Of a DNA stretch of 64,000 nucleotides, positions 8,606 to 27,358 are shown piece by piece. The notes under the pieces were generated by a model. It was not told the origin of the DNA, did not search any database, and saw only the letters and a list, made by a program, of their open reading frames with translations. This DNA is from a virus: the IMG/VR virus record IMGVR_UViG_3300044627_003356; one strand, written 5' to 3'. Position numbers and translations under genes: made by a program. Position 1 is the stretch's first letter. Each line of letters starts with the position of its first letter.

Positions 8606-9087
8606 GTATACATTTTCAAAATACCGATGGTGGTCATAGCATCAGTATGAAGTATACCAATACCACCCTCTACTCTCCATTGGTCGATGTTCTGTGAAGT
8701 ATCATCAATCAATAGTGAATTTTCATTAGAGAAATCTCTCTTAAATCTTTTACCTGGTACTAAATTAACAGGAAACTCAATGTTGTGTTTATTCAACCAA
8801 TCAATTTTTTGTTCTCTAATTTCTGCATCACGCTTTTCGGATGATGTTGAAGATAGAATCTCTGTTGGTATTGATAATGACCTGAGGTAGTTAATTAGCA
8901 TCAGAGCATCAGGCATTAAATCTAATTTGGCAAACTGTCTTTCAGCAATGAACATGGTAAAAAACTTATCAAATGTTTTGTATGTGTCTGCATCTTTTGG
9001 TTCAATCTTATACAATTCTTTGTATCGCTTATTGAAATCAGCAATCACACCATCCATGTCCAAGTAAATCTTGGTAATCTTATGCAT
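8602..9087 (-). CDS. HAD-family 5'(3')-nucleotidase
   Basis: IYLDMDGVIADF and LLIDD motifs. Confidence 0.8.
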   Translation of the reverse strand: MHKITKIYLDMDGVIADFNKRYKELYKIEPKDADTYKTFDKFFTMFIAERQFAKLDLMPDALMLINYLRSLSIPTEILSSTSSEKRDAEIREQKIDWLNKHNIEFPVNLVPGKRFKRDFSNENSLLIDDTSQNIDQWRVEGGIGILHTDAMTTIGILKMYT

Positions 9088-9700
9088 ATTCTTTAATCTT
9101 TTCTTTTAAAAACTTCGTAAACTTTTCTTTATCGTATTGTATAAACGGTGTATATTTCTTTATAATTCTTCGGTGTGTTGGCCAAATAATATCTTCGGTG
9201 ATTTGTTTTTCCCATTTTGGCATACAACCAAGTATATCAACTAGGATACAAACTGTTTCCAATGAAATCTTATCGTGCATCATTTTGGTAATTAACATTG
9301 GCCAACCACCATCGATTGGTTTAAAGTAATCATCAATATGCCAGAACTCAGCACCATCAACACTATCAAACATATACATTATATCATTCTCAAAGGTATA
9401 TGTCAAGCTCTGTTGGGTTTTTTGCCACTTGGTATAGTTCTCATCACCATCCTGAAGTAAGTCGCCCACCCAATCACCTTTACCTTGGATAAAGTTGGCA
9501 ATATAGAAGTTTTTTAATTCTTCTATATCGTATTTACGGGATAATTTATAGAATTGGTATTTTGATTTGTTGATGGTGAATGTCTGTTTAGATACATTTG
9601 TTTTTCCGTTATACTTAAAGTAATCGTAAGATTCGGAAGTAAAATGCAACTTCAAGGCATTCCATAATGCATATGCGGCAAAACCTGAATTTTCTGTCAT
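9080..9700 (-). CDS. gp59: Helicase loader gp59
   Basis: ALKLHFTSESYDYFKYNGKT, ISLET, KYTPF. Confidence 0.9.
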   Translation of the reverse strand: MTENSGFAAYALWNALKLHFTSESYDYFKYNGKTNVSKQTFTINKSKYQFYKLSRKYDIEELKNFYIANFIQGKGDWVGDLLQDGDENYTKWQKTQQSLTYTFENDIMYMFDSVDGAEFWHIDDYFKPIDGGWPMLITKMMHDKISLETVCILVDILGCMPKWEKQITEDIIWPTHRRIIKKYTPFIQYDKEKFTKFLKEKIKEYA

Positions 9701-11173: not shown

Positions 11174-11458
11174 TTAAAAAAATTCTGCCGTTTTTTCTAT
11201 ACCATTATTTTTACAATAGTCGTTTCTGTAATTAAAAAACGATTCAACAGCTGGTTCTAATTTCCATTTTTCAAAAGTTTCGGCATCTTTAAAAATTGTA
11301 GTAAAAACTACCGTTTTTTGGTTTTCATTTTCAACTTTATAATTATCAATTATTTTATTTGTGGTTAGATATTCATCTCTGGTTTGAATAAAATTTTCAG
11401 GCACATCCCAAAAAACAGGTGGCCAAGTTGGGAATTTAAATGTCATCACGGTTGTCAT
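11174..11458 (-). CDS. Hypothetical protein
   Basis: ORF overlapping exonuclease stop by 4 nt. Confidence 0.6.
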   Translation of the reverse strand: MTTVMTFKFPTWPPVFWDVPENFIQTRDEYLTTNKIIDNYKVENENQKTVVFTTIFKDAETFEKWKLEPAVESFFNYRNDYCKNNGIEKTAEFF

Positions 11459-12111
11459 TTGTATTGGTCCTTATAAAATTGTATAGCTTTTACCAAACCA
11501 AGAATGTGGTCTTGTGTCTGTTGTTTAAATATCAATGGCTGTTCATCTTCAACCGCCATAATAATAACTAAGTTATTTATAGGTATGCCAATCATTTCTT
11601 CATACATCAAAGCGTATGCTGCCGTTTGCCAATAATAATCTTCAATGTCTGCACTTGATTTAATCTTCTTGGATGTTTTAAAATCAATTACGGATAACTC
11701 ACCATCGAACTCAGCAATACAATCGACCCTACCTGCCATTTCTAATTGTTTAGACCATAAGGCACACTCTTGATAATGAATATTGTTAATGCGATTGAGT
11801 AATGGTTTAAGTGTTCTAAACATTTCAACAGCATCAGGCATAATATCACCTAACGGTTCATTATTTAAATATCGTTCACATAGTGTATGTACATTGGTGC
11901 CACGACTAGTTGCCTTCTTTGATACACGATTGGCTTCTTCTTCACCAACTCTCTTACGCCATTTCATAATAGCTTCTTTCTTCTGAGCACCAAGAACTGT
12001 GGTGACCGATGGTAACTTCGTACCATCTTCTAGTGTGTAGTAACGTTTACCATCAGGAAAGGTTTCGGATTTTAAGTCAGCAAGGACTTTAGGGGGGCAA
12101 AATTTAAACAT
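11455..12111 (-). CDS. PD-(D/E)xK Cas4-like exonuclease
   Basis: LPSVTTVL, RGTNVH, AGRVDCIAEFDGELSVIDFKTS, QTAAYA. Confidence 0.9.
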   Translation of the reverse strand: MFKFCPPKVLADLKSETFPDGKRYYTLEDGTKLPSVTTVLGAQKKEAIMKWRKRVGEEEANRVSKKATSRGTNVHTLCERYLNNEPLGDIMPDAVEMFRTLKPLLNRINNIHYQECALWSKQLEMAGRVDCIAEFDGELSVIDFKTSKKIKSSADIEDYYWQTAAYALMYEEMIGIPINNLVIIMAVEDEQPLIFKQQTQDHILGLVKAIQFYKDQYK

Positions 12112-12472
12112 TTTTTATTTTTTCCAATACTTCATTTGATATTTCATGATGATACTGATACCACAAATGCACTCTTTCTGTTTCAATAGGAATAAAAACT
12201 GAATGTTCCAGACTATTCGTCTTAATTAATACCGGTATGCCATCGGCGGGCTGATGTATTTCGGTAATTTTTCCATTTTCTTTGAATCTCCATATTGTAT
12301 CAGGACTAGTTTTTAATGCTATGTGTATTCTATAAGGTGTGTGTTCATCATAATGATAACTTATTTCATTCCAAGTATTTGGTTTAACAAATTTATCTAT
12401 TTCGGTTGTCAGCCTTTCTATATCAACAAAAAAGTTTTTTAACGGTATAAAAAAATTATTCATAGTTACCAT
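12104..12472 (-). CDS. Short AspH/2OG-Fe(II) oxygenase-like protein
   Basis: HYD...RIHIALKT...EHSV...ERVHL. Confidence 0.55.
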   Translation of the reverse strand: MVTMNNFFIPLKNFFVDIERLTTEIDKFVKPNTWNEISYHYDEHTPYRIHIALKTSPDTIWRFKENGKITEIHQPADGIPVLIKTNSLEHSVFIPIETERVHLWYQYHHEISNEVLEKIKNV

Positions 12473-12630
12473 TTATTTTTGGGGCATTTTGTGTCAATTA
12501 AAAGTGTTTTTGTTTTTAAAACACAATTACAAACGGAACACATTGCTACCATTTTATTAACCATAAACTCACATTTAGAACAAATTTCCATTCTTTCTTT
12601 TTGCATTTTAAATTGTGGTAAAGTTAACAT
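12466..12630 (-). CDS. Cys-rich 54-aa protein
   Basis: Manual translation MLTLPQFKMQKERMEICSKCEFMVNKMVAMCSVCNCVLKTKTLLIDTKCPKNKW; translationally coupled on both sides. Confidence 0.7.
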   Translation of the reverse strand: MLTLPQFKMQKERMEICSKCEFMVNKMVAMCSVCNCVLKTKTLLIDTKCPKNKW

Positions 12631-13205
12631 CATCTTTTATCCAATAAATTTAATTCTTGAAACACTTCAACCATTTTGTCCCAAGTTTTAATATTTCCTT
12701 TTAGACGAATACTAATAGCCCATCTTGGTTTTTCCCCCATCATTATTGCATGAGGAATATCCACTCTCACTAGTGTTAAATTAGATTGTATTCGTGTTTT
12801 ATCAATTTCTTTTAATTCATCAATTGGCCAATTAATATATGGAGTTCCCGCTACAGTATATAATATTTTTTTTTCTTTTTTTGGTAATTCATACCAAATC
12901 ATATCGGAATCTTCCCCTCCCACCACAAAATTTAATCCAGATATATCACAATCAACACTTCCAACTTTTATATCTATGTGTGCAAAATTTGTATTAAAAT
13001 TTGAAGGTCTATAAAATAACATTGCATGATTTACAATAGGAATATTTAATTTTTCAATGTATTTTAACCATTCCGCATCGACAATATCTTTTATGTTTAG
13101 TCTCCAAACTCCGTTGCCTGAAGAATTATTTGGCGCTGGAAAATTCCATTGCGGATTAATAACCGGACAATCAACTTTTAATTTGTACCAACAATTATTC
13201 ATCAA
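12630..13205 (-). CDS. 2OG-Fe(II) oxygenase/cupin-like protein
   Basis: AHID...VRVDIPHAI...PRWAISIR (HxD...H...R). Confidence 0.65.
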   Translation of the reverse strand: MMNNCWYKLKVDCPVINPQWNFPAPNNSSGNGVWRLNIKDIVDAEWLKYIEKLNIPIVNHAMLFYRPSNFNTNFAHIDIKVGSVDCDISGLNFVVGGEDSDMIWYELPKKEKKILYTVAGTPYINWPIDELKEIDKTRIQSNLTLVRVDIPHAIMMGEKPRWAISIRLKGNIKTWDKMVEVFQELNLLDKR

Positions 13206-13821
13206 TGTAACCCAAACGTTTTAGTATTTGTTTACAATGTTTATAATCCCATTTCCAATTTTTAAAATTCCAACCCACAGCAATTCTTTCCTGGCCACTT
13301 AAATTTTTAACTCCATGCCATTCATGTACATTAGTCAGATAAGCATTTCCATAAACTGAATATGTACATATTGGCAATGGAAAATTAGAAATAACTTGAT
13401 TATTATTAGTTTGTTTTTTTGGTAAATCATAATACTCAGAAACACACAATTCAGAACATCCATCTATTGGAAAATAAATTGCTTCAGGTCGCCATTTCCT
13501 ATCAACATGTGGACTCATTATTTGTCCTGGGTTTATTTTTGTTATTGAAGCCGATTTACTCATGTATGGCAACAAGTCTGAAAACTGTTTCCAGAGAGGA
13601 TCCAATCTACATTCTTCAGAAACAAATCCTTTATTAAAATGATTTATGTCTTTACCTTTAGATGGTTCCCATATACCATCTTTTTCCCATATGGCAACAA
13701 TAGCTCTACCTTCATAATCACTGGTCATATTTTTAGCAAAATATTTGTAATAAATTTGCCTCATTGCATTCAATTGAAATTCACTAAACTCACATTTAGA
13801 ATACAAATTGTTAGCATTCAT
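13195..13821 (-). CDS. 2OG-Fe(II) oxygenase-like protein
   Basis: PHVD...NVHEWHGVKN...ERIAVGW. Confidence 0.7.
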   Translation of the reverse strand: MNANNLYSKCEFSEFQLNAMRQIYYKYFAKNMTSDYEGRAIVAIWEKDGIWEPSKGKDINHFNKGFVSEECRLDPLWKQFSDLLPYMSKSASITKINPGQIMSPHVDRKWRPEAIYFPIDGCSELCVSEYYDLPKKQTNNNQVISNFPLPICTYSVYGNAYLTNVHEWHGVKNLSGQERIAVGWNFKNWKWDYKHCKQILKRLGYIDE

Positions 13822-13822
13822 T

Positions 13823-14455
13823 TTAATATTCTTGTATGTGTGGATTTTTTATTCCCAATCGAATAATATCTTCATTTGTTAATTCTGGATGAAATCTTAA
13901 ACCACAAATTGTTCTATTGATATTATCAGAAATACCAGAATGTAATATTGTTGTGTTGACCAATAAAGGCCTTTCATCCCAAAGAACCCTTTTAATTTCT
14001 GTAGCGTCATGCCGAGGTAACCATCCATAATTTATTTTAGGATTCAATCCATCTTTCATTGCATCAATTAATTTAATTTTGTCAGTTTTAAACCAAGCTG
14101 TGTAAGAATTTTCATAATCTGATATACCTATGTTTATGGAGTGTGTTGAAATGTATGGGCTGTAAGCGTCAACATGAACCTTATGTATATTGTTTAATAT
14201 GACTTTTTTTGAAACCAAAATTCTACGAAATTTATTTTGCAAACCAACACTATTTAAATATTTCTTTAAGGTTGGACAATAATTATATACATGAACAGCA
14301 TCGATATTATAATAAGATGCGTTTGTTGCATAAATTTGTTTATTTGGTTCATTTATTAATTTTTTCAATTCCTCCCTAATAATTTCTAAATTAGGAATAA
14401 CAAAATAACTATAAAACCAGTCCGGAAACAATGGAGTATAAACCATTTTTTCCAC
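13823..14455 (-). CDS. 2OG-Fe(II) oxygenase/cupin-like protein
   Basis: VHVD...VNTTILHSG...NRTICGLRF; CATAAATA at 14502-14509 upstream. Confidence 0.65.
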   Translation of the reverse strand: MEKMVYTPLFPDWFYSYFVIPNLEIIREELKKLINEPNKQIYATNASYYNIDAVHVYNYCPTLKKYLNSVGLQNKFRRILVSKKVILNNIHKVHVDAYSPYISTHSINIGISDYENSYTAWFKTDKIKLIDAMKDGLNPKINYGWLPRHDATEIKRVLWDERPLLVNTTILHSGISDNINRTICGLRFHPELTNEDIIRLGIKNPHIQEY

Positions 14456-14523
14456 CCATCTGGAATATTCTTGTTGCTGTTTTTCCGAGGTAATTTGTAG
14501 ATATTTATGAATTTTTATTTTTC

Positions 14524-14976
14524 CTATAACATTCTACCAACAATGATATCCTCATCAATGTAACCCATTCGATGAAGTATTGGGCTAAAGTCATTTGACG
14601 ACTTTATGTGCCAGGTAATTTTGTTGGCACCAAGTTCTTTCATTTTTTGTTCGGAATATTTAATTAATTTTAATCCAAATCTTCCTACTCTATGTTCCTT
14701 TTTTAGAAACAATACATCGTTACTTGCAACCAAGATATCTTTATAATGTATATGTGGTTTTAAAAAGAAAGCACTATAACCAATCAATTCTTTATTGATT
14801 CTAGCTGTAAATAAAAAAAACTGATTGTTATCTTCTAATTTTTTATATGCTTCCCAATCAGGATTCAATTTTACTTTATCTTTATACAAAGTAATTTCTT
14901 GGTAATGAAAATTTGTCAATTCTTCCATTTCAGGAAGAATGTCAAACAAAGATTCAATTTTTAAATCGAGTGTCAT
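14524..14976 (-). CDS. GNAT-family acyltransferase
   Basis: DVLFLKKEHRVGRFGLKLIKYSEQKMKELGA acetyl-CoA-binding motif. Confidence 0.8.
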   Translation of the reverse strand: MTLDLKIESLFDILPEMEELTNFHYQEITLYKDKVKLNPDWEAYKKLEDNNQFFLFTARINKELIGYSAFFLKPHIHYKDILVASNDVLFLKKEHRVGRFGLKLIKYSEQKMKELGANKITWHIKSSNDFSPILHRMGYIDEDIIVGRML

Positions 14977-15839
14977 TATTTATTAATGTTTTGAATAATG
15001 TTTTTAAGGTTTTGAGAACCCAATGCATAAGTTGTGGATTCCTCTTGTTTAAAATCTTCAATTACTTTAGAGTTATTCATATAATCATTTATAAGATTTT
15101 GCCAATAAGTTATTGTTTCTTGTGGGGTGCCTTTAGGTGCCACGAAGCAGTAGCCCGCAATATCGATCCAATTTTTGTACAAACTATCAAAAGCAACTAA
15201 ATTTGGTTCAACACTCAATTTACTCGTTGATCCTAACATAATCAATTTTCCTGATTGTACATGGTCTTTTACAACCGCATAAGGAAGAATGGCAAAATCA
15301 GTTTGACCACCTATCAAATCCGTCAAAACATTAGAAACACTTTTGTATGAAGCTTTAACAACTTCGGTCTTTGGTTTAACATTATCCAATACTTGGTTGA
15401 TAAACAACAACTGTGCCGGTGTATTATACCCAAACGCATATGGCACACCCATCTTCATTCTTTTTGAAAAATCATTATATGATTTAACATTTGTTTTTGT
15501 ATTGGTTACCAACACGGCTGTAAATTTACGAGTTGCTGTAATGTATTCAAACTCTAAATTGTTATTTTTTACGACTGATGCTACCGATCCAATAGTTGTA
15601 TAACCAATGAAAGTACCGTCTTTCGGTGATTTAGAAAGTTCTTGTAGTCCAATAAGACCTTCAGCTCCAGGTTTCATCATTGCGACAAATTTTACATTCT
15701 TATTTTCATTTACATATTTTTCAAAATGTCTTAAAGAAAGTTCAACACCACCACCTTGGCCAAAAGGTACAATTACTTTTGTTTCGGCAAACACATTGAG
15801 AGAAAGTAGGCATAAAAATGCCAATATAATTTTATTCAT
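14976..15839 (-). CDS. Bug/TctC tripartite tricarboxylate transporter substrate-binding protein
   Basis: Signal peptide; IVPFGQGGG, KPGAEGLIG, PKDGT, YKS...DLIGGQTD, APKGTP. Confidence 0.85.
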   Translation of the reverse strand: MNKIILAFLCLLSLNVFAETKVIVPFGQGGGVELSLRHFEKYVNENKNVKFVAMMKPGAEGLIGLQELSKSPKDGTFIGYTTIGSVASVVKNNNLEFEYITATRKFTAVLVTNTKTNVKSYNDFSKRMKMGVPYAFGYNTPAQLLFINQVLDNVKPKTEVVKASYKSVSNVLTDLIGGQTDFAILPYAVVKDHVQSGKLIMLGSTSKLSVEPNLVAFDSLYKNWIDIAGYCFVAPKGTPQETITYWQNLINDYMNNSKVIEDFKQEESTTYALGSQNLKNIIQNINK

Positions 15840-16995
15840 CGTTTCCTTTTCTTACAAAAAAAATATCACTAATCATTGTTTTTATTCCTGGTGTTGAACT
15901 ATTAAAATTTGTTAAGAATCTTTTATCTATACCAGAAGTGACTGTTTTGACATTACTAAAAAATGCATCTTTTAGTTCATCAAATTCACCACATTCAAAA
16001 AACCAAAACCATTTGTCTTGTCGTGTTGCACTTCTTGGTTTATCAGCTTGAAATTTGTTATAATCCCAAGTGTCATAACAAGTTAACTTACCAATATTAT
16101 TTTGAACTTGAATTATAACACTTAACTGAAAATTAAATTGTGAACCCTTTTGAGCAACGGCATTGTTTGCTACCTCATATATTCTCAAAAACTTTTTTTT
16201 ATCTTCATTAATGATATAATAATTGGCGGCCTGATATGCCATTTCAAAAGTTAAAATAGGAAAATCTGGCGACCAATAAAAACACTCTTTATTATCTGGA
16301 TCATCATCTTTTGTTTTATTGGCGTATAACATTGTTGTCGCCAAATCATTAAAAAACATATAAATGTCATTGTTGTGTATTGCTAGTGATGGTTTATCAA
16401 TACCAAAAATATGTCCGGTTCTTTTTTTCGACAATGATATATCTATACCGGTAAAAGATTGCAGTATGCCTGCTCGAGTGTGGTCAATAATTTCAAAAGA
16501 AGATTCTAAATTTTTTATAGTCAGTTCATCTGTATAATCATTAATTGTTATTTTAATTTCCGGATTAGTAAGTTTAAGTTTATCCAATTCAGGTTTGACA
16601 ACAAAATCCCATTCACTCCAGTAATTTCTGGCTGTTCCATCGACAATGTTTTTCTCATAGAACTTACCATCAACCAAGGGTTTTGGCCAATTCACAATAA
16701 TTTCATCTAATTTTATATTATTATTGATAAACGACATCAATACATTATGACTATCAGCGCCACCAGAATAATAAAGAATTAAATATTCATAGTTGTCCCG
16801 CAACTGTTGAGCTCGTTCTTTATATAATTGATTTAAAGGTATTTTACCTAAAACAGACCGGTCAAATTTTTTCCACACATCATCATGGTACATAAATTTA
16901 ACTTTAGTGTCATTACGAGATGCATAAAGTAAAGCTTCAATTTTGTTGTAAAATTTTAACCCATTCGTATACCAATAGCCATATTTTTCTGTCAT
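15832..16995 (-). CDS. PP-loop (AsnB/QueC-like) ATP pyrophosphatase
   Basis: YKERAQQLRDNYEYLILYYSGGADSHNVL, GIDKP, FYWSPD. Confidence 0.7.
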   Translation of the reverse strand: MTEKYGYWYTNGLKFYNKIEALLYASRNDTKVKFMYHDDVWKKFDRSVLGKIPLNQLYKERAQQLRDNYEYLILYYSGGADSHNVLMSFINNNIKLDEIIVNWPKPLVDGKFYEKNIVDGTARNYWSEWDFVVKPELDKLKLTNPEIKITINDYTDELTIKNLESSFEIIDHTRAGILQSFTGIDISLSKKRTGHIFGIDKPSLAIHNNDIYMFFNDLATTMLYANKTKDDDPDNKECFYWSPDFPILTFEMAYQAANYYIINEDKKKFLRIYEVANNAVAQKGSQFNFQLSVIIQVQNNIGKLTCYDTWDYNKFQADKPRSATRQDKWFWFFECGEFDELKDAFFSNVKTVTSGIDKRFLTNFNSSTPGIKTMISDIFFVRKGNDE

Positions 16996-17630
16996 GATTT
17001 TATGATATTTCTAAAACTATTTTTTGAAAGTGAATCACACAATTCTTGAAAAGAAGGATTTCCTTCAAATTTTGTTTGTAATACAATTCTATCTTTGGGG
17101 CCAGAACAAACATAACTATGAAAAACATCTGTATTCACAACATACACATCACCAACTTCTGTTCGGAGTTCTTCTGTATAAGGAAAATTTTCAAAATCTT
17201 CTATTGCGTGAGCATTTCTGGTATAATTTAATTCAATTTTTGCCGGCACATCACCAAATTTATAAACATCTTCATCTTTATGCCAACGCACCCAATCATT
17301 ATCATTACAGTTTATTGCAATATTTAATGCTGCTTTATCGTTAATACCATCTTTATGTATTAAAAATTTAGATCCAGCTGGTGTATAAAATGCTTTTTGA
17401 TTGTAATAATTTTTTTTATGTGCCATTTCACCAACCCCGTTGGCGATTAATCTGACATACAAATTATAATTTTCAAATATTTTTAAAAACTCACAATTCA
17501 AATTATACGTTAACCATATCCATTGATTTTTTGATTTTTTCGGATCTTTTAACTTTAGTATTTCTTCACGAAAAAAATCAATCGTTTCTTTAGGTAATTT
17601 GCCTAATTTTTTATAATTTTTTGGCATCAT
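16992..17630 (-). CDS. 2OG-Fe(II) oxygenase/cupin-like protein
   Basis: IHKDG...ALNIAIN...VNTDVFHS...DRIVL. Confidence 0.65.
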   Translation of the reverse strand: MMPKNYKKLGKLPKETIDFFREEILKLKDPKKSKNQWIWLTYNLNCEFLKIFENYNLYVRLIANGVGEMAHKKNYYNQKAFYTPAGSKFLIHKDGINDKAALNIAINCNDNDWVRWHKDEDVYKFGDVPAKIELNYTRNAHAIEDFENFPYTEELRTEVGDVYVVNTDVFHSYVCSGPKDRIVLQTKFEGNPSFQELCDSLSKNSFRNIIKS

Positions 17631-18582
17631 GCAATATATTTCTTTCTCTTTTCCAATCAGTCGTAATGTATAACGGCATTCTTTCTAGAATTTGTGTTGG
17701 TGTTCTATATGATCTCCAAGAATGAAGTTTAATTTTTTCTTTTGTATATTCGTCATCTTTGGTGAACTCATATAGTTGTTTTTTTAATGGTAACTTATAA
17801 TTTTTAAACTCATATCCAGGATATTTATTTTCAGCTGAAGTGGATACGGCATAATCATTCCAATCTGATGTACCACCAAAATGAAATAAATTTTTATCCA
17901 AAATCATTTCATCAATCTCCAACAACCACATCAATTGTTCTGCTTGGTAATTCAATGCATAATCTAACCACCAAAAGAAATCTTTAACGTCCACAATTTC
18001 TCTTGGGCAGGCCTGTATTAATCTAGTATAGTTCTCCTGTGAGAATTTGTCAACCTCTTTAAGAAAGTCTGCCATTTTTTGTGAAAGTTTACTTTGAGGC
18101 ATAGTTCTATACATTCCAGCACCAAACACAGGATCCAATAAATGGCCAGTAACAATGATGCCATCTTTTAATGAATTTTTTAAAGAATTGGTCGTATAGA
18201 AATCCATTTGGCGAATTTCTAATTGGTCTTTAATATACTTTTCATAATATTCAGAATACTCCCTAATTGAGTTATCGTTCATCATTACAGCTATCTGTTC
18301 TTTGGGAGCAATCTTTAATAATTCAGATAATGTTAATGTAGAATCAATACCTCCACTCCAAGTTACAACTATTTTTTTTGAACCAGCGGCATTCACTATT
18401 TTTTTAGCTGAATCGTAACAAAGTTCTTCAACGGTTTTTGGTGTACAGAGTTTACCAATAGGTGTAATTGTTTCAATCTCAGGCAAATCAAACATTTTAC
18501 CTGTTCTGTCGTGTGCTGTAAAAATAACGATTGGATTTTTTATAGCAGGATTTATACCCCAATGGTAAAAATACTTTTTCAC
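17611..18582 (-). CDS. PP-loop (asparagine synthase-like) ATP pyrophosphatase
   Basis: DRT, VTWSGGIDST, IVTGHLLD, DFFWW, YKLPLK. Confidence 0.7.
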   Translation of the reverse strand: MKKYFYHWGINPAIKNPIVIFTAHDRTGKMFDLPEIETITPIGKLCTPKTVEELCYDSAKKIVNAAGSKKIVVTWSGGIDSTLTLSELLKIAPKEQIAVMMNDNSIREYSEYYEKYIKDQLEIRQMDFYTTNSLKNSLKDGIIVTGHLLDPVFGAGMYRTMPQSKLSQKMADFLKEVDKFSQENYTRLIQACPREIVDVKDFFWWLDYALNYQAEQLMWLLEIDEMILDKNLFHFGGTSDWNDYAVSTSAENKYPGYEFKNYKLPLKKQLYEFTKDDEYTKEKIKLHSWRSYRTPTQILERMPLYITTDWKRERNILHDAKKL

Positions 18583-18752
18583 AAGATACCTTCTTTTTTT
18601 AGAAAATCAATAGATTCGGTTTTACCTAACCACACATGAGATGGAAATTTAATATTTAAGTTATAATTTTCTGGTGGAGGAGAATACAGATGAGAAAACC
18701 TATAATCTTTTAAATCTTCTTCTATATTAGTGGGACATTCATTGTTTACCAT
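18579..18752 (-). CDS. Small hypothetical protein (57 aa)
   Basis: Manual translation MVNNECPTNIEEDLKDYRFSHLYSPPPENYNLNIKFPSHVWLGKTESIDFLKKEGIL; fills the gap and overlaps both neighbours. Confidence 0.55.
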   Translation of the reverse strand: MVNNECPTNIEEDLKDYRFSHLYSPPPENYNLNIKFPSHVWLGKTESIDFLKKEGIL

Positions 18753-19479
18753 GTTCTATTACCTTTATTAAAATACCACCCAAATCAAAAAATTCTGGCC
18801 GGTGATTGAAGATATATCTTTTAGCATTGTTGTGATGTTCTTTATGTATCCATTCACCTGCCATTGGAATAATGAATTCCATGTACCACAAATTTTGTGG
18901 TTCTCCATTTTTATGAGCATAGATGGTTTGTAAACCACTAGTAACAAGATATGTTGAAATTGGTAAAGCAAAACCGTATAAAAAAAGATTGCTATCAATA
19001 ACAAATAACATTATACCTGCCACTAAAAATAAAGATAAAGAATGATTCATTAAAAATCTGTGCATTGGATCACGCATCATCTTCAATTCATTTTTCCCTG
19101 CCACAATATTATTTCTTTCTTTAAATCTTAAAAAATATTTAAAGTTGCTTTCATATGGATCCATAGGTGTGTCAGAATATCGATGATGGGTACGATGAAC
19201 AGCAGACCAAGAAACTGGAGAAGAATTTAAAGTGATTGCACCAAATAGTCCAAAAATCCAATGCCATACTTTGGAACAAATAAATGCGTTATGACAAAAT
19301 AATCGGTGATAACCAACTGTTACTGTGATAGCAATACAGAGATAAACAAAAAAAGATAATACAAACCAAAGAAAGTTTGTGTTAGTTGTGTATACTAAAA
19401 TTAATATTGGTAAAAGCATCCATGCACCTATGGTTCGGTGCCAAGATTTGGTTTTCATGTGAAAAATAATCCATAACAA
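18739..19479 (-). CDS. Membrane fatty-acid (delta-9-like) desaturase
   Basis: His boxes GYHRLFCH, HRTHHRYSD, HKEHH; TM helices. Confidence 0.9.
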   Translation of the reverse strand: MLWIIFHMKTKSWHRTIGAWMLLPILILVYTTNTNFLWFVLSFFVYLCIAITVTVGYHRLFCHNAFICSKVWHWIFGLFGAITLNSSPVSWSAVHRTHHRYSDTPMDPYESNFKYFLRFKERNNIVAGKNELKMMRDPMHRFLMNHSLSLFLVAGIMLFVIDSNLFLYGFALPISTYLVTSGLQTIYAHKNGEPQNLWYMEFIIPMAGEWIHKEHHNNAKRYIFNHRPEFFDLGGILIKVIEHGKQ

Positions 19480-19955
19480 TCTTTATCTAAAGCTTGAACT
19501 TCAACATCTCCACTACGGACTCGCACTTGACATGGTCCTGTAAATATCTTTGTATTAATTTCGAATTGACCTCTGGCCAACCAGAAATTGGTTTTATTGG
19601 TAAAATTTGTTTTTTCACCTGATTTTAAAACTAACGATGAAAGATTTGGCAAACCATTTTTATTATGTTTATGTGATATACAAACCCATTCTGTTTCTAC
19701 GGGAAATGATAATAATAAATTTCCTGTTGAATTTGCTTTAGCATCAGGATGTTCATAATTCAGCCAACCAGGAATCCTGTCCTGAAGTTCTTCATTTGTT
19801 TCAATGACTTTTACCTTGGCCAAACCTTTTGTGTAGAAATAATATCCTGATGTTACAAGTCCATCAACACCCAACTCAACAACTCTTTCATCACCTACAT
19901 CCGCTTCAACAACAAAAACGGTGTAACCAAAAGCTGCATAAGGTTTCATTTTCAT
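19455..19955 (-). CDS. Hypothetical beta-rich (cupin-like?) protein
   Basis: ORF within the operon; beta-strand-rich sequence. Confidence 0.55.
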   Translation of the reverse strand: MKMKPYAAFGYTVFVVEADVGDERVVELGVDGLVTSGYYFYTKGLAKVKVIETNEELQDRIPGWLNYEHPDAKANSTGNLLLSFPVETEWVCISHKHNKNGLPNLSSLVLKSGEKTNFTNKTNFWLARGQFEINTKIFTGPCQVRVRSGDVEVQALDKDCYGLFFT

Positions 19956-20344
19956 ACAGTTGCTCCAGCCATTTCAGATAAAGTTCTTTGAATTGCAACA
20001 GTAATTTTTACTCTATACAATTCAGCGAAATCAAAATTATCAATAGTTGAGATTTGATATTGGCCAGGAACTGGTTGAACATTTGTAAATCTTTCACAAA
20101 CTTGTTGTTTTCCAATTGATTCTTCTATAAAAGATAAATCAGCATCAGTAACAGATTGAGCTTTCATATGTTCAACTGTTGGAGCATATTTTTTAATAAT
20201 TTCTTGCAAGTCGGAAAGGCTTTCTGGTAGCGGTGAAGTTAGTCTAATGAAAGCCCAAGTACCATCTCCAAAAGTAACTTTCAAAGTTTTGTTTTCTTTA
20301 TTGAATTCTTCAATTTTATATTGTAAAATAAAAACATCGTTCAT
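19952..20344 (-). CDS. Hypothetical protein, possible fibre/adhesin chaperone
   Basis: Immediately downstream of adhesin gene. Confidence 0.5.
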   Translation of the reverse strand: MNDVFILQYKIEEFNKENKTLKVTFGDGTWAFIRLTSPLPESLSDLQEIIKKYAPTVEHMKAQSVTDADLSFIEESIGKQQVCERFTNVQPVPGQYQISTIDNFDFAELYRVKITVAIQRTLSEMAGATV

Positions 20345-20345
20345 T

Positions 20346-21350
20346 TTATGCTAATCCTCCAGCTACTGTTCCACTATTATTTAATGTTACTGAGTTTATG
20401 CCTTTAACGAGATATCTACCAGCAGATCCAGCTGCATTTCCACCAGCGCCACCTGAACCAGCAGAACCAGCGCCATTATTACCGGAAGATCCTGTACCTC
20501 CGGTACTACCAGACCCACCATTAGTTCCGGCCGCACCAAATGCTCCTCCAGCACCACCAAGCCCCCCCGTGCCGCCTGTACCTCCAACACCTGCATTTGT
20601 GCCACCAGCAGCACCAGCGTTTCCTCCTGCACCACCAACACCATTGGTAGAAGCTTGATTATACCCTTGGCCTACTCCACCAGATCCTCCAGCTCCACCA
20701 GATCCTCCAGCTCCACCACTTGTAAAAGTTCTATTATATTGATTAAAAAAGTTTGTGTTTTTAGCGCAAGAAACACCTGTATCGATAGCGTAAGTATAAC
20801 CACCTGGATTACCACAAGTTTGTGTTATAAAAGTATCAAAAAATCCTGGTCCACCTTGGCCACCTGTGCCACCAGTACCACCAGAACCACCACCGCCGCC
20901 ACCACCGTAAATAACAGCTCCCGATTTATTGTTAATAACAACGGTTTGATTTCCGAAATTAGCATTTATTGCATCACCACCAACTGAGCTTCCTGCTCCA
21001 CCAAATCCTTGGATTGCTCCATAGTTATTGATAATACACGTTGATCCTGTTGGAAATTGGCCAAGTGTTAAAGCTGTTGTGCCGGATCCACCAATCACCC
21101 TTGCTGTATCAACAAGGACTTTATATGTGGCTACCGTAGCGGGAGATGATAAAAAACTATAAACATTTAAATTTGTTGTGTTTGATGCATATCCAGTACC
21201 TCTGGCAGAATTTGTATCAATTGCACCAGCCAACTGGTCGGCTAACTTTCTAAACGTATCATCATTCCAACTGAATTGAGCGGTAGATGACCTACCCAAT
21301 TCAGTATTAATTTGAGATGCGGAAATTGCGCCTGTGATAGATAATGGCAT
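20346..21350 (-). CDS. Glycine-rich tail-fibre adhesin, T2 gp38-like
   Basis: IINNYGAIQGFGGAG...INNKSGAVIYGGGGGGG...GSAGRYL...NSGTVAGG, resembling gp38 polyglycine architecture. Confidence 0.7.
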   Translation of the reverse strand: MPLSITGAISASQINTELGRSSTAQFSWNDDTFRKLADQLAGAIDTNSARGTGYASNTTNLNVYSFLSSPATVATYKVLVDTARVIGGSGTTALTLGQFPTGSTCIINNYGAIQGFGGAGSSVGGDAINANFGNQTVVINNKSGAVIYGGGGGGGSGGTGGTGGQGGPGFFDTFITQTCGNPGGYTYAIDTGVSCAKNTNFFNQYNRTFTSGGAGGSGGAGGSGGVGQGYNQASTNGVGGAGGNAGAAGGTNAGVGGTGGTGGLGGAGGAFGAAGTNGGSGSTGGTGSSGNNGAGSAGSGGAGGNAAGSAGRYLVKGINSVTLNNSGTVAGGLA

Positions 21351-21376
21351 TTGTGTTTTTTTTAGTTAATAATGGT

Positions 21377-21384
21377 TATTTATG
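21377..21384 (-). promoter_or_regulatory. Late promoter (CATAAATA) heading the adhesin/enzyme operon
   Basis: NATAAATA about 27 nt upstream of adhesin ATG. Confidence 0.65.
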
Positions 21385-21388
21385 TCAA

Positions 21389-22147
21389 TCATTCCTGATC
21401 TTCGATCTTCAATTTGGCCAAAATATACTCTTTTACAAGACTACTACGAACAATATCGTCAGCAGTAAATTCAATCTTGGTAAAAGCGGTCATGTGCATG
21501 GCAATATCAAAGAATCTTAATATGCCCGACATATCATTCTTGCGTTTATTTAAATCAGTCTGGCGATAATCACCACACCATAATATCTTTGACCTGTAAC
21601 CTACTCGTGTCATTACAGTATCAATTTCTTCAAAGGTTAAGTTCTGCATCTCATCTACAAGAATAATGGCATCATCAAATGACATACCACGAATGAATGA
21701 TGTAGAGATAAACTCAATGTGACCTTGTTCAGTTAATCGTTGATAAGCATCTTTACGACCAAAAAGTGTTTCACAAATTTGTTGATATGGCTGTTGAAAG
21801 ATTTCCATCTTCTCAGATACATCACCTGGTAGATGGCCAATCTCTCTTGATTGTACGGCTGACCGAACAATAATAATCTTATTGAATGGATTGGATTTAT
21901 CCAATACTTCTTCTAGTGCTTTGTATAAGGCACAGAATGTTTTACCTGTACCTGCAACACCATGTAATGCAACAAAGTAGTCCCCTTGTTTGTATGCATC
22001 AAAGAAAATCTTTTGGTTATCTGTTAATGGTTCAAATGTTTTTAAATCATCAATACGGACTTTTAATGCGTTTGTCTGTCTATTGTGTGGTTCTTTGTCG
22101 TGCGGTGTTGCCACATCAGGTAGAACTCTTTTTTTGGTCGCCATCAA
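21389..22147 (-). CDS. phoH: PhoH-like ATPase
   Basis: GVAGTGKT, IGHLPG, FIRGMSFDDAIILVDEMQN, GDYRQTD. Confidence 0.95.
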   Translation of the reverse strand: MMATKKRVLPDVATPHDKEPHNRQTNALKVRIDDLKTFEPLTDNQKIFFDAYKQGDYFVALHGVAGTGKTFCALYKALEEVLDKSNPFNKIIIVRSAVQSREIGHLPGDVSEKMEIFQQPYQQICETLFGRKDAYQRLTEQGHIEFISTSFIRGMSFDDAIILVDEMQNLTFEEIDTVMTRVGYRSKILWCGDYRQTDLNKRKNDMSGILRFFDIAMHMTAFTKIEFTADDIVRSSLVKEYILAKLKIEDQE

Positions 22148-24602: not shown

Positions 24603-25559
24603 ATGGTGGACTTTATGCTTAAGATTTTTATATTTTGTTTGTTTTTCATTTCATCACACTTTTCACATTCCAGTGATTTTAAAGATAAACCCATTACCAT
24701 AATTTCAGGTTTTTCTCCTGGTGCAACCGACCAAGCTTTAAGACCTTATATAGAAGCATTTGAGAAGAATGGTTATAAAATTGTGGTAGAACACAAACCT
24801 GGAGCAAATGGTATAGTTGCATTAAATTATTTTTCAAATAATGTTAAACCTGATGGGTATACATTGTTTGCAACTGCTTCTTCCATGTTTACTCTCGCAC
24901 CTATAGTTTCTTCCGACATTTTAAAAAATAATGGAGTTGATTTAATTACCACTATTGCCGCTGGTCCAATAGTTTTGGTTTCAAATAAACAATCGAATGT
25001 AAAAACATTAAAACAATTTCAAGATGATTTATTAAAGAATGATAACTCAATAAGCATTGCTTCACCAAGTTTATTTTTTGAATATGCCTCAAGATATTTG
25101 ATTAAAGAATCAACAAAACAATCAATTAATGTTCCAATTGTTAACTATAAATCTGGATCAGATGCTATTAAAGATGTTTTGGGTGGTCATGTAAAATATG
25201 GAGTTCTACAATTATCTGTAGCCACACCATTTATAAATTCTGGTGATATAAACATTATTGCAATAAGTGGAGAAAAACGATTTGTTAATTTACCAAATAC
25301 TCCAACATTTTCAGAATTTTTTCCCAATTTCAATTCAAATTTAGAAGCAAGCTGGGGTATAGCATTACCAAAAAATACAGACCCTAAAATTTATAAATTT
25401 TATCATGATTTTTTCACAAAAGTGGCTCGTGAAGAAGAAACAAAAGAAAAACTATTAAAAACTTTTATGATAATTCCCAATAATTACGTTGGCAAAAAAG
25501 CTTTTGAAAATAGAATTAATAAAGAATCTATAATGTGGAAATCAATTACAATAAAATGA
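24603..25559 (+). CDS. Bug/TctC substrate-binding protein (second paralog)
   Basis: Signal peptide; KPITIISGFSPGATD, EHKPGANG, KPDGYTL, YKSGSDAIKDVLGGHV, WGIALPKNTDP. Confidence 0.9.
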   Translation: MVDFMLKIFIFCLFFISSHFSHSSDFKDKPITIISGFSPGATDQALRPYIEAFEKNGYKIVVEHKPGANGIVALNYFSNNVKPDGYTLFATASSMFTLAPIVSSDILKNNGVDLITTIAAGPIVLVSNKQSNVKTLKQFQDDLLKNDNSISIASPSLFFEYASRYLIKESTKQSINVPIVNYKSGSDAIKDVLGGHVKYGVLQLSVATPFINSGDINIIAISGEKRFVNLPNTPTFSEFFPNFNSNLEASWGIALPKNTDPKIYKFYHDFFTKVAREEETKEKLLKTFMIIPNNYVGKKAFENRINKESIMWKSITIK

Positions 25560-26263
25560 ATGGTATTGAACAATATCTGTATCTCGTTGTTAACCGAGAA
25601 AATAATTTTATATACTCCATGTGTGACAATTGTTCAATAGCAAACGCATTGAGTAAAGGTTTTATAAATTCTTCTGTAATGGCCATTCCTTATACGTTAT
25701 TTAAAAGGCCTGCGACCGTTATTGACTATGTAAAAAATGAACATATCACATACAAGCTTGTTAATCAATTTATGTATGGAGGTAATAATTTAGAGTCAAA
25801 TTTAGGGGAAACTATAAAAAAAACAAACACAGGTAAACTTTTTGACATTGTTTTAATTGATACAAATTTACCGAATGACTGGATAAAAATAAGAAAAATT
25901 TGTAATACTCGTACAATTATACTGATCAATTTAGAAAACAAATTAAAACGTTACTTCGCTAGATATAAAGAATCTTTTTATGATGAATCTTTCTACAATT
26001 TTTTAACAAAAGAACTGGAAGAATGTTTTCCTACAGAAAATATTTTTTCCCCTTTAATTTTAGAATATGCAAAAATAATAAAATTAGAACCAAACGAAAC
26101 TTTTCAACATCTAAAAATGAAACATGATTGTTTTAAACTATGTATTTTTAGACATACGGCTTTATGGGAAAAATATGTTGATTTGGTAATCAAAACTGAT
26201 GAAGAAAAAAATGAATTATATCAAAATTTTGAGTTTGAATTGATGGGTATGAATAGAAATTAA
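25535..26263 (+). CDS. Hypothetical protein
   Basis: 242-aa ORF between Bug and PP-loop genes. Confidence 0.65.
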   Translation: MEINYNKMNGIEQYLYLVVNRENNFIYSMCDNCSIANALSKGFINSSVMAIPYTLFKRPATVIDYVKNEHITYKLVNQFMYGGNNLESNLGETIKKTNTGKLFDIVLIDTNLPNDWIKIRKICNTRTIILINLENKLKRYFARYKESFYDESFYNFLTKELEECFPTENIFSPLILEYAKIIKLEPNETFQHLKMKHDCFKLCIFRHTALWEKYVDLVIKTDEEKNELYQNFEFELMGMNRN

Positions 26264-26266
26264 ACA

Positions 26267-27358
26267 ATGAATTCAATAATTGTTAGCACCGACCATAGTT
26301 ATTCTTTTAAAAAGAATATACAATTTTCTATGAACAAACCCGATTTAAATTTATATTCGGATATACTAAAAATTACTCCTTTTACATGGTTGGTGGACAG
26401 AACAAAATTGTGTAATTTACCTTTCAAGACACATTTTATTGAAGATTATCAATTACCGGAAATAACAAAACATTCTTGTGATAGTTTGGATAATATCTGT
26501 CAAAATATTGTAGAACAGTACAAAAACATCGATAAACAAATTTATATACTTTGGAGTGGAGGAATAGATTCCACTCTGTTAGTAGTTTCTTTTTTAAAAT
26601 CAACAGTACCATACAGTAAAATTACGATTGCATGTAATTTTGATTCTATCAAAGAAAATTATGATTTTTATAAAAAACATATTTTACCAAATTTTAAAAT
26701 AATCTCATCGGATTTTTTAATGCAATCTGTGAGCACATCAACAATTGATGGTATAATATTAAATGGTGATCCAGCTGATGTTTTATATGGATATGATTTA
26801 ACTACTAGTATTTCTAAAATTTTAGGTTTTGATTATTTACAATTACCATGTAATAGAGATAATGTAACAAACTATTTTAAAATAAAAGGACTTTCTGAAC
26901 AATCAGCAAATTTTTGGTATGATTATTTTACTCATTCCATAGACAAATCTCCAAAACCAATAAAAACAATGCAAGATTTTTCTTGGTGGGAAGGGTTTAA
27001 TTATAGATGGCAAGCTGCCAATGAAAAATTTTACGTCAGGTTACCTTTGAATAACTCAAACTGTTACGAAAAAATTTTTAATCGTGCTGAGTTTCAATTG
27101 TGGGCAATTTTTAAAGAACCAATTATCATTAAAAAATTAAATGATATCAAGTTAGAATCTAAAAAAATAATTTTAGATTATACAAAAGATGAGTTCTATT
27201 TTTATAATAAAATAAAATTAAATTCTAATAGCCATGTATTTGGATTGAATTCTTACTCTGCTGTTTTAAACACCGGCCAAAGATTGGCCCAAGAAGAATT
27301 TAATGTTTTTGATTTTTATGATGAAAATAATTTTATTAATGATTGGTTATCTTCTTAG
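26267..27358 (+). CDS. PP-loop (asparagine synthase-like) ATP pyrophosphatase, paralog of 17611..18582
   Basis: VDRT, ILWSGGIDST, NGDPAD, DFSWW..FNYRWQ. Confidence 0.7.
   Translation: MNSIIVSTDHSYSFKKNIQFSMNKPDLNLYSDILKITPFTWLVDRTKLCNLPFKTHFIEDYQLPEITKHSCDSLDNICQNIVEQYKNIDKQIYILWSGGIDSTLLVVSFLKSTVPYSKITIACNFDSIKENYDFYKKHILPNFKIISSDFLMQSVSTSTIDGIILNGDPADVLYGYDLTTSISKILGFDYLQLPCNRDNVTNYFKIKGLSEQSANFWYDYFTHSIDKSPKPIKTMQDFSWWEGFNYRWQAANEKFYVRLPLNNSNCYEKIFNRAEFQLWAIFKEPIIIKKLNDIKLESKKIILDYTKDEFYFYNKIKLNSNSHVFGLNSYSAVLNTGQRLAQEEFNVFDFYDENNFINDWLSS

Follow-up and report, generated by a model that had tools for sequence, protein, structure and literature searches.

An adhesin-linked enzyme cassette of conserved gene order in uncultured aquatic phages: a putative mobile host-recognition module

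Enzymes encoded among the fibre genes of marine T4-like phages have been published before, as have phage desaturases and multiple phage 2-oxoglutarate (2OG) oxygenases. The host recognition cluster (HRC) of pelagimyophages and cyanomyophages, described by Zaragoza-Solas et al. 2020 (PMC7029224), is a plastic region of low synteny where genes for apparently unrelated enzymes stand among those for tail fibres; a change of the host surface that would avoid co-infection was proposed as its role. Phage lipid desaturases, for their part, are a known class of auxiliary genes (Roitman et al. 2018, PMC5776448). The present analysis concerns an island of 15 minus-strand open reading frames (ORFs), running from 21350 down to 12104 in a stretch of 64,000 nucleotides (the window) of the virus record IMGVR_UViG_3300044627_003356. 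A first-pass annotation, made from the letters of the window alone, had taken the island for a late-expressed, adhesin-linked enzyme set that either makes a small molecule or modifies the virion or the host receptor. Having compared the gene contexts of about 120 loci, we infer that it holds a cassette that probably serves uncultured aquatic phages as a horizontally mobile, late-transcribed host-recognition module.

The HRC is non-syntenic, rich in glycosyltransferases and situated between VrlC and gp14 (PMC7029224), whereas the cassette preserves its gene order in dozens of uncultured phages, lacks any glycosyltransferase, occupies a PhoH/exonuclease site in the window and occurs also in a podophage-like contig. 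Another likeness is offered by the cultured Pelagibacter phage Mosig EXVC030M (MT647606, Mosig_00072-00081), in which Asp_Arg_Hydrox, FA_desaturase, a TauD-type dioxygenase, an N-acetyltransferase and a second Asp_Arg_Hydrox stand beside tail fibres; the Mosig desaturase is, however, 27% identical to that of the window, and the other partners there are an aminotransferase, FMN reductase, peroxiredoxin and methylase. A literature search on this enzyme combination in phages found nothing relevant. What appears to be new here, no description having been found in the literature, is the cassette of conserved order, its phage-only members and its occurrence in a podophage. The island DNA has no megablast match among 50,697 phage records.

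In the direction of its genes the island encodes a Gly-rich adhesin-like protein (X), the small proteins p130 and p166, a desaturase (DES), p57, an AsnB-type synthetase (ASNB1), the oxygenase-like ox212, a second PP-loop protein (PP387), a TctC/Bug solute-binding protein, a GNAT acetyl/acyl-transferase, the oxygenase-like ox210, ox208 and ox191, a DUF6171-like Cys-rich protein and the short oxygenase-like ox122. The ORF coordinates bear out the co-oriented, mostly coupled chain that had been described in this order: neighbours overlap or lie 1 nt apart, overlapping start and stop codons run through the chain, and the only two intergenic gaps are those at 21351-21388 (38 nt) and 14456-14523 (68 nt). 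Co-orientation alone is not special for the island, because the same-strand run extends past 12104 into the exonuclease and p94 genes; the minus strand carries every gene from 21350 to 11174, and the region from 8.6 to 24.5 kb is co-oriented throughout. The conserved flanks lie outside the cassette: PhoH at 21389..22147 (minus strand; PF02562, 4.6e-44) and the PD-(D/E)XK exonuclease at 11455..12111 (minus strand; phrog_298, 1.8e-75), the latter standing near PhoH in relatives without the cassette. Most of the labels given in the first-pass annotation hold up, namely those of the His-box desaturase, the AsnB-like ligase with its SGGIDS motif, the Bug/TctC protein and the GNAT (both above their Pfam cutoffs), the HxD..H oxygenases and the Cys-rich peptide, while "gp38-like" for the adhesin and "AspH-like" for ox122 proved to be weak labels; the figures are given with each protein below.

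An ASNB1 orthologue (44-71% identity) occurs in 21 distinct loci, and each of these carries p166, DES, an ORF of about 60 aa and ASNB1 in the same order, with GNAT downstream of ASNB1 wherever the contig reaches; most of them add 1-5 ox191, ox208 or ox210 genes. PP387, TctC, ox212, DUF6171 and ox122 are limited to a few lineages, GNAT directly following ASNB1 elsewhere, and are therefore regarded as accessory inserts. Loci L118-L121 are without ASNB1 and p57, yet keep p166, desaturase, GNAT and oxygenase, and the adjacency of p166 and DES persists at 29-38% identity (L095, L096). The conserved core is adhesin-p130-p166-desaturase-GNAT, usually joined by p57-AsnB and 1-5 oxygenases, and all these cassette enzymes keep intact catalytic motifs. 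On the ASNB1 tree the loci with an adhesin of about 190 aa form one supported clade (99/96), and adhesin type is clustered (6 changes as against 10.4 when shuffled), from which it follows that adhesin and enzymes do not reassort freely. Judged by gene order, the cassette is a cohesive, mobile, adhesin-coupled module and no random mosaic of auxiliary metabolic genes. The gene-neighbourhood check proposed along with the first-pass annotation thus came out in favour of linkage, the enzyme core reassorting independently neither of itself nor of the adhesin; the idea of a coherent unit stands for the adhesin-linked core and falls for the island as a whole, which is no indivisible 15-gene pathway, five of its genes being inserts.

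Three genomic contexts are occupied: the side of nrdAB (one clade), the interval between PhoH and exonuclease (the window, L005, L022, L024, L025 and L117), and a position after a long fibre (L009, where a 1297-aa fibre is followed by the cassette and then by AspH and a tail-collar-domain protein). In the relatives L012, L034 and L042 the PhoH-exonuclease site is empty of the cassette; L034, with a PhoH 79% identical, has one or two unrelated genes there. The phage of the window is T4-like: its 705-aa protein matches "peptidase" genes in 464 phage records, at up to about 38% identity, these being cyanomyophages almost throughout, plus three Pelagibacter phage records. The sole p166 match in a cellular genome is L123, an 11-kb contig of 63% GC in a Burkholderiaceae metagenome-assembled genome (DATJCV010000280.1) that carries podophage markers (SU10 adaptor, GP4 gp80 fibre, gp53-like fibre C-terminus). 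Its fibre module ends in Gly-rich adhesin-p130-p166-desaturase-GNAT, 34-45% identical to the window proteins and with the His boxes intact, and no other island gene is present. Since the core occurs in this podophage-like contig, the five genes seem to have been exchanged between unrelated phage types along with the adhesin. The origin of L123 is also a weak hint that the hosts of cassette phages include Burkholderiales, which are rich in Bug/TctC proteins.

These data bear on whether the genes have a common function at all. They might be auxiliary genes independent of one another (a desaturase for membrane fluidity, 2OG oxygenases related to stress, an acetyltransferase) and held together only by shared descent in a hyperplastic region, in keeping with the known occurrence of desaturases and multiple 2OG oxygenases as auxiliary genes in marine T4-like phages (PMC5776448; PMC7029224), with the insertions and deletions by which the accessory part of the island varies, and with a low GC that suggests a plastic region. 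We consider this very improbable, as three contexts and the podophage-like contig L123 (63% GC; 34-45% identity) all show one order, p166 and DES remain adjacent down to 29% identity, and start and stop codons are coupled.

The island is more AT-rich than its surroundings, as had been noticed at first sight, the enzyme genes having a GC of 30.4% as against 36.4% for the remainder of the window. The two late-promoter-like motifs also lie where they had been reported, on the minus strand: one CATAAATA at 21377..21384, in the 38-nt gap from the PhoH stop to the adhesin start, and a second CATAAATA at 14502..14509, in the 68-nt gap preceding ox210, so that copies occupy both intergenic gaps of the island. 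ATAAATA, the core of the motif, is much rarer in the window than expected (14 observed, 34 expected), and most copies stand just 5' of gene starts, two of the 14 falling in the island's sole two gaps. Depletion with copies ahead of genes is what counter-selection on a late-promoter core would be expected to leave. For exact TATAAATA, which in a T4-type late promoter lies about 10 nt 5' of the transcript start, the window shows no enrichment (6 as against 8.5 expected). The CATAAATA sites are thus putative late promoters, which their placement fits and does not prove.

The adhesin-like X (20346..21350, minus strand, 334 aa; phrog_10745, 1.2e-10) carries Gly-rich runs and the N-terminal cap motif M-P-L-S-I-T-G-A-I-S. 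The window X has no Pfam match at all, neither it nor the L005 protein matches the GP38 family (PF05268) even at E 1, and the L009 homologue reaches only E 0.0099 (16.2 bits, below the 25-bit cutoff). X is 68% identical to its L005 counterpart and 45% identical, over 96 aa, to that of podophage-like L123. In nearly all loci the place two genes upstream of p166 is taken by such a variable X, either Gly-rich and of 285-384 aa or of about 190-245 aa, with the common N-terminal motif M-x-L-P-x-S-G-x-I-S...G. Directly upstream of p166, again in nearly all loci, stands the p130 family (19952..20344, minus strand, in the window), whose window member ends in the conserved C-terminus ..IQRTLSEMAGATV; the family keeps ..IQxVLxEMAGATV, and p130 is 34% identical to its L123 counterpart. 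It is a probable adhesin accessory or chaperone.

The beta-rich, phage-specific p166 (19455..19955, minus strand) is always found immediately 5' of the desaturase. Its alignment has a mean column identity of 63% and its family comprises 234 clusters at 50% identity; with a match in 1 of 185,579 species genomes it is essentially phage-only, and it has no detectable homologue in cultured phages. Atlas matches to pirin, KduI and cupin clusters (0.84-0.88) are a lead, and only a lead, towards a cupin-like fold; profile-profile tests gave no relation between p166 and the oxygenases, and searches of PDB sequence profiles with p166 gave nothing useful. L118 and L119 hold a second p166 paralogue that adjoins fibre genes and has no desaturase of its own, which suggests that p166 is fibre-associated. 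In the metagenomic proteins P0230 and P0236 (291 and 298 aa) p166 forms the C-terminal part, joined to N-terminal domains of about 130 aa that are unrelated, and in L096 such a fusion still precedes a desaturase homologue.

DES (18739..19479, minus strand; the true start is likely the ATG at 19458, which overlaps the p166 stop) is a compact membrane di-iron desaturase of the SCD type (putatively Delta9 acyl-CoA/acyl-lipid) and the sole integral-membrane protein of the island, with hydrophobic segments at residues 33-58 and 142-174. It falls below the Pfam cutoff for FA_desaturase (PF00487; E 6.8e-5, 23.2 bits as against 29.7), but a profile of 15 DES sequences matches SCD1 (4ymk) at E 5e-10, across box 1 and box 2 only. 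Invariant in these 15 sequences, and retained in L123, are H58/H63, H95/H98/H99, H189 and H212/H215/H216, in the pattern HxxxxH, HxxHH, lone His (H189) and HxxHH. With SCD1 it shares three His boxes and the signature HxxHHxxSDTxxDP; it differs from SCD1 and the known phage desaturases in its compact size (about 240 aa), in always having p166 before it and GNAT or ASNB1 after it, and in being linked to an adhesin and not to photosynthesis-related genes. In a protein search, Mosig (27%) and two Acinetobacter phage records were the only cultured phages with a DES match.

A membrane desaturase next to oxygenases and an amide-forming enzyme recalls the tailoring of ornithine lipids and lipid A, in which the 2OG hydroxylases OlsC, OlsD and LpxO, the membrane di-iron enzyme OlsE and the ATP-dependent addition of a taurine amide at the head-group carboxylate act on one lipid (PMC12971839); the enzyme for the taurine transfer is not yet known (PMC12971839). 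The likeness is one of class only: DES is of the SCD and not the OlsE type, the soluble oxygenases match no LpxO model, and OlsB and OlsF are absent. It nevertheless raises the possibility, in our judgement a rather unlikely one, that the enzymes remodel the host envelope by acting, at the inner membrane, on a lipid or amino-lipid such as lipid A, ornithine-type lipids or the acyl chains of phospholipids. Phages with this adhesin class would then no longer be bound by infected cells or debris, the whole being a lytic-phage counterpart of the receptor-masking genes that accompany receptor-binding genes. T5 carries llp beside pb5, and P22 and Sf6 carry O-antigen modification genes beside the tailspike, which speaks for such a role. 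So do the intact, membrane-bound SCD-type DES, the match of enzyme classes to amino-lipid and lipid A tailoring (PMC12971839), the host-surface change against co-infection already proposed for the pelagimyophage HRC (PMC7029224), the analogous desaturase, AspH and GNAT cluster adjoining the tail fibres of Mosig, and the export of the accessory TctC proteins. On the other hand, translational coupling ties the genes to a late structural gene rather than to early expression; membrane segments, which LpxO has, are absent from the oxygenases and ASNB1; the DES type does not correspond to OlsE; it is left unexplained why p130 and p166, both phage-specific, should be required; and the adhesin body varies without any change in the enzyme core.

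ASNB1 (17611..18582, minus strand, 323 aa) is a stand-alone AsnB-type synthetase domain with the PP-loop WSGGIDST, of which S76-G-G-I-D-S-T82 is invariant in 28 sequences. The assignment comes from the fold: its AlphaFold2 (AF2) model, with a predicted local distance difference test score (pLDDT) of 92, gave VIA Z scores of 14.1 with TsnB9 (7ylz), 13.3 with human ASNS (9b6c), 13.1 with beta-lactam synthetase (1jgt), 11.9 with AsnB (1ct9) and 11.7 with the carbapenam synthetase CarA (1q15), in alignments of 218-252 residues at 8-16% identity, as against 7.7 or less for other PP-loop families. A role of the PP-loop proteins as DNA or tRNA modifiers was ruled out on this AsnB-type fold (TilS, QueC and ThiI-type Z of 6 or less), and one as sugar amidotransferases of the WbuX/PseA type is unsupported, as no specific NCBIfam family was found for any of them. 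With the AsnB family ASNB1 shares the SGGxDS PP-loop and the entire fold of the synthetase domain; it differs in having no N-terminal nucleophile (Ntn) glutaminase-type domain, only about 45 residues preceding the helix that leads into the P-loop and the model aligning to the synthetase chains from residue 116-178 or so onward, in giving no match above cutoff to Pfam Asn_synthase or NCBIfam asn_synth_AEB (sub-threshold matches were to NAD_synthase, PP-loop and TilS only), and in having a dedicated small partner, p57. The fold would imply adenylation of a carboxylate followed by amide formation. ASNB1 has no tblastn match in cultured phages and 115 metagenomic homologues, all unnamed; in BFVD six proteins of uncultured phages match the model with template modelling (TM) scores of 0.64-0.76, some of them automatically named "asparagine synthase", and relatives are encoded on at least 517 IMG/VR contigs.

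The partner, p57 (18579..18752, minus strand), is a conserved small protein found only alongside an AsnB-like gene and missing from the loci without ASNB1 (L118-L121, L123). Nine residues are invariant in its alignment, including the acidic pair E12-D13, and its stop overlaps the start of ASNB1, of which it is a putative partner or substrate. If it were the latter, p57 could be the ribosomal peptide of a sub-module resembling those for ribosomally synthesized and post-translationally modified peptides (RiPPs), modified by ASNB1 (amidation or macrolactam formation), the hydroxylases and GNAT. AsnB homologues do act on peptides, as lasso cyclases and thiopeptide amidotransferases, and the strict co-occurrence of p57 with ASNB1, the overlap of their codons and the invariant acidic pair would all suit such a pathway. 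Its likelihood seems to us slight: Pfam and PHROG searches of the island ORFs gave no match to a leader protease of the transglutaminase-type lasso B class, to RRE/PqqD (RRE, RiPP recognition element) or to an exporter, p57 is conserved over its full length and not as a leader with a variable core, and the core cassette occurs without either p57 or ASNB1.

In the oxygenase-like families of 208, 191 and 210/212 aa the HxD..H motif and a following Arg are invariant. For ox208 (13195..13821, minus strand) these are H105, D107, H169 and R179, in 30 sequences; for ox191 (12630..13205, minus strand) H76, D78, H152 and R161; and for the family that joins ox210 (13823..14455, minus strand) with ox212 they are H94, D96, H172 and R181. 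The AF2 model of ox208 (pLDDT 94.5) has the double-stranded beta-helix (DSBH) fold of small 2OG/Fe(II) oxygenases, its neighbours being Cpz10 (7v4p, Z 10.8), proline hydroxylases (9.1) and AspH (8.8) and nearly all of its top 50 structural matches being 2OG oxygenases or other cupin-type proteins; the fold was modelled for this one of the five oxygenase-like ORFs. Cpz10 is a caprazamycin beta-hydroxylase (PMC9814697). No Pfam 2OG or AspH model matches ox208, ox191, ox210, ox212 or their homologues, members of the ox208 and ox191 families giving chance-level scores only; ox208 has no tblastn match in cultured phages, and PDB sequence-profile searches with ox208 and ox191 gave nothing useful. 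Profile-profile comparison of the families places HxD..H..R in register at P 0.013-0.05 only, so that common ancestry is not shown by sequence. Orthologues of ox210 occur in L005, L024, L025, L027 and L116-L121. The copy number of ox191 varies among loci from 1 to 4 separate paralogues, and in L001 (12579-13745) two ox191-type domains are fused in tandem into a single protein of about 390 aa. In L016 (region 8867-9500) the ox208 gene stands between desaturase and p57, from which it follows that oxygenases can move within the cassette.

The core GNAT (14524..14976, minus strand, 150 aa) matches PF00583 at 2.3e-9 (37.9 bits, cutoff 20.7) and phrog_1249 at 1.9e-13. Its orthologues are 57-72% identical in other T4-like loci and 37% identical in L123, and in other loci it lies directly 3' of ASNB1 or DES. 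A PDB sequence-profile search gave nothing useful for GNAT; the best named match, a weak one, is a protein N-acetyltransferase of the RimI type.

Taking these proteins together, we tentatively prefer, with rather less than even confidence, the reading that adhesin and enzymes are synthesised side by side late in infection and that the enzymes then modify the adhesin or the fibre-tip complex covalently. On the cytoplasmic side of the inner membrane DES, with p166 as adaptor, would supply or edit an acyl group; GNAT would pass an acyl or acetyl group to an amine on a fibre-tip protein; the AsnB-like enzyme with p57 would adenylate a carboxylate and close an amide; and the hydroxylases would install beta-hydroxyl groups. 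Fibre-tip tailoring is favoured because the enzymes, coupled in translation to a structural gene of the late class, lie inside fibre modules, even in a small podophage; because two phage-only, non-enzymatic proteins are needed, one of which, p166, is also found beside fibre genes without a desaturase; and because the fold neighbours of ox208 are beta-hydroxylases of aminoacyl groups or proteins and the weak GNAT match is of the RimI type.

Several points weigh against it. The tailoring is read from the genes and the modification itself is hypothetical. It would be strange for a soluble virion protein to be paired with an integral-membrane acyl desaturase, GNAT, at 150 aa, looks like an acetyltransferase rather than a long-chain acyltransferase, and the TctC proteins, being exported, cannot work on components of the virion. 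In L001 the enzymes are present with no adhesin next to them, and one and the same enzyme core is found with adhesin bodies as different as the Gly-rich type and that of about 190 aa. The clustering on the ASNB1 tree is consistent with a functional link and does not prove it, plain co-inheritance giving the same picture, and the candidate late promoter is a one-off variant of the T4 consensus. A broader form of fibre-tip tailoring, which we hold to be doubtful, is that phages of different morphotypes share a transferable kit with which each modifies its own receptor-binding tip, for example by unsaturated acyl or acetyl, hydroxyl and amide decorations, the desaturase being recruited by p166.

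Two of the accessory genes, PP387 and TctC, bear on the small-molecule alternative. The TctC protein (14976..15839, minus strand; PF03401, 1.1e-13) has a signal peptide, and both it and a paralogue elsewhere in the window (TctC2, 24603-25559; E 6e-13) carry an N-terminal hydrophobic export segment (residues 1-26 in the island TctC) and exceed the 27-bit PF03401 cutoff, with 51.8 and 98.3 bits for the two copies. No TctA or TctB membrane part was noticed in the island, in which no search was aimed at these. PP387 (15832..16995, minus strand, 387 aa, PP-loop YSGGADS) travels with TctC. It has no Pfam match, no PDB sequence-profile match and no tblastn match in cultured phages, and an IMG/VR scan confirmed no relatives. 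Its description as a second PP-loop ligase is good as far as the P-loop goes, SGGxDS being invariant in the family; its relation to ASNB1 (hhalign, 95.8%) is confined to the P-loop region. Genes of the TctC type pair with PP-loop genes in three ways: PP387-TctC, TctC2-p242-ASNB2, and ASNB-TctC in L045 and L062. In these last two loci the TctC-type and PP-loop genes adjoin long fibre-like genes.

A carboxylate or amino acid imported via TctC might thus be N-acylated or acetylated, amidated and hydroxylated to a lipo-amino acid or amide metabolite late in infection. Such a pathway would fit these three pairings, the beta-lactam synthetase, carbapenam synthetase and TsnB9 among the fold neighbours of ASNB1, and a caprazamycin beta-hydroxylase, Cpz10, as the best fold match of ox208 (PMC9814697). 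We think it quite unlikely, since minimal modules exist without ASNB1 (L123, L118-L121) and, in L123, also without oxygenases, no scaffold-forming enzyme, exporter or resistance gene is present, and strict linkage to an adhesin is unexpected for a metabolite pathway. The analogy to clavulanate drawn at the outset is sound at the level of enzyme class, the clavulanate and carbapenem clusters likewise combining an AsnB-like ligase, 2OG oxygenase, GNAT and solute-binding protein, and goes no further: the cassette has no equivalents of CEAS, PAH, CarB or CarC, ASNB1 is as close to AsnB, ASNS and TsnB9 as to beta-lactam synthetase, and ligase, oxygenases and binding protein are dispensable in minimal cassettes. 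A clavam, carbapenem or lasso pathway is ruled out, the defining partners being absent.

The remaining accessory genes lie on either side of the core GNAT and oxygenases. Present only in the window and L005, ox212 (16992..17630, minus strand) shows HxD..H..R and aligns with the ox210 family, as said above. The DUF6171-like Cys-rich protein (12466..12633, minus strand, 55 aa) matches PF19668 at 3e-4 and phrog_13558 at 2.5e-11. The short ox122 (12104..12472, minus strand, 122 aa) reaches only E 0.052 with Asp_Arg_Hydrox, its motif having been seen by eye only; it is 81 residues shorter than its 203-aa L005 homologue and aligns to residues 80-203 of that protein only, and a 184-aa gene beside the L005 homologue is missing from the window (12104-12633 compared with L005:16996-18328). 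It is possibly non-functional. The 203-aa L005 protein itself has an internal repeat of its own first 28 residues.

A second island on the plus strand (24603..27358) encodes TctC2 (318 aa), p242 and ASNB2 (363 aa), the first and last of these being paralogues of TctC and ASNB1. Its GC is 26.9%, and exact TATAAATA stands ahead of it at 24536. ASNB2 is 26% identical to ASNB1 (E 2e-19) and scores E 0.021 (13.9 bits, against a cutoff of 267 bits) with asn_synth_AEB; the p242-ASNB2 pair recurs in at least nine other viral loci. ASNB paralogues at 25-32% identity never keep the cassette partners, and one subgroup of them pairs with p242. In the T4-like L012, L013, L042 and L011, 2-4 tandem AsnB-like paralogues stand beside radical SAM, DegT aminotransferase, epimerase and glyoxalase-type genes, from which tandem copies it follows that the phage "asparagine synthase" superfamily is widely diversified. 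Phages with the cassette in the nrdAB context also encode, a few genes upstream of it, a secreted protein that is conserved among them, about 105 aa long and with a high content of His, Tyr, Gly and Pro (L001:7630-7950, L004:7102-7419, L007:7028-7405), with APS-kinase-like and CHAP peptidase genes nearby.

In abundant myophages of marine and fresh waters, the enzymes encoded between tail-fibre genes had been viewed as a variable mosaic with guessed roles. The five-gene unit gives a concrete target for asking whether phages tailor their adhesins or mask receptors through lipid chemistry. Should a shared tip-modifying kit be borne out, it would be the first enzymatic system for the post-translational lipidation or tailoring of a phage adhesin. 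Either outcome would bear on host range and superinfection, and on the unannotated families p166, ox208, ox191 and the phage "asparagine synthase", the last with its at least 517 members in IMG/VR.

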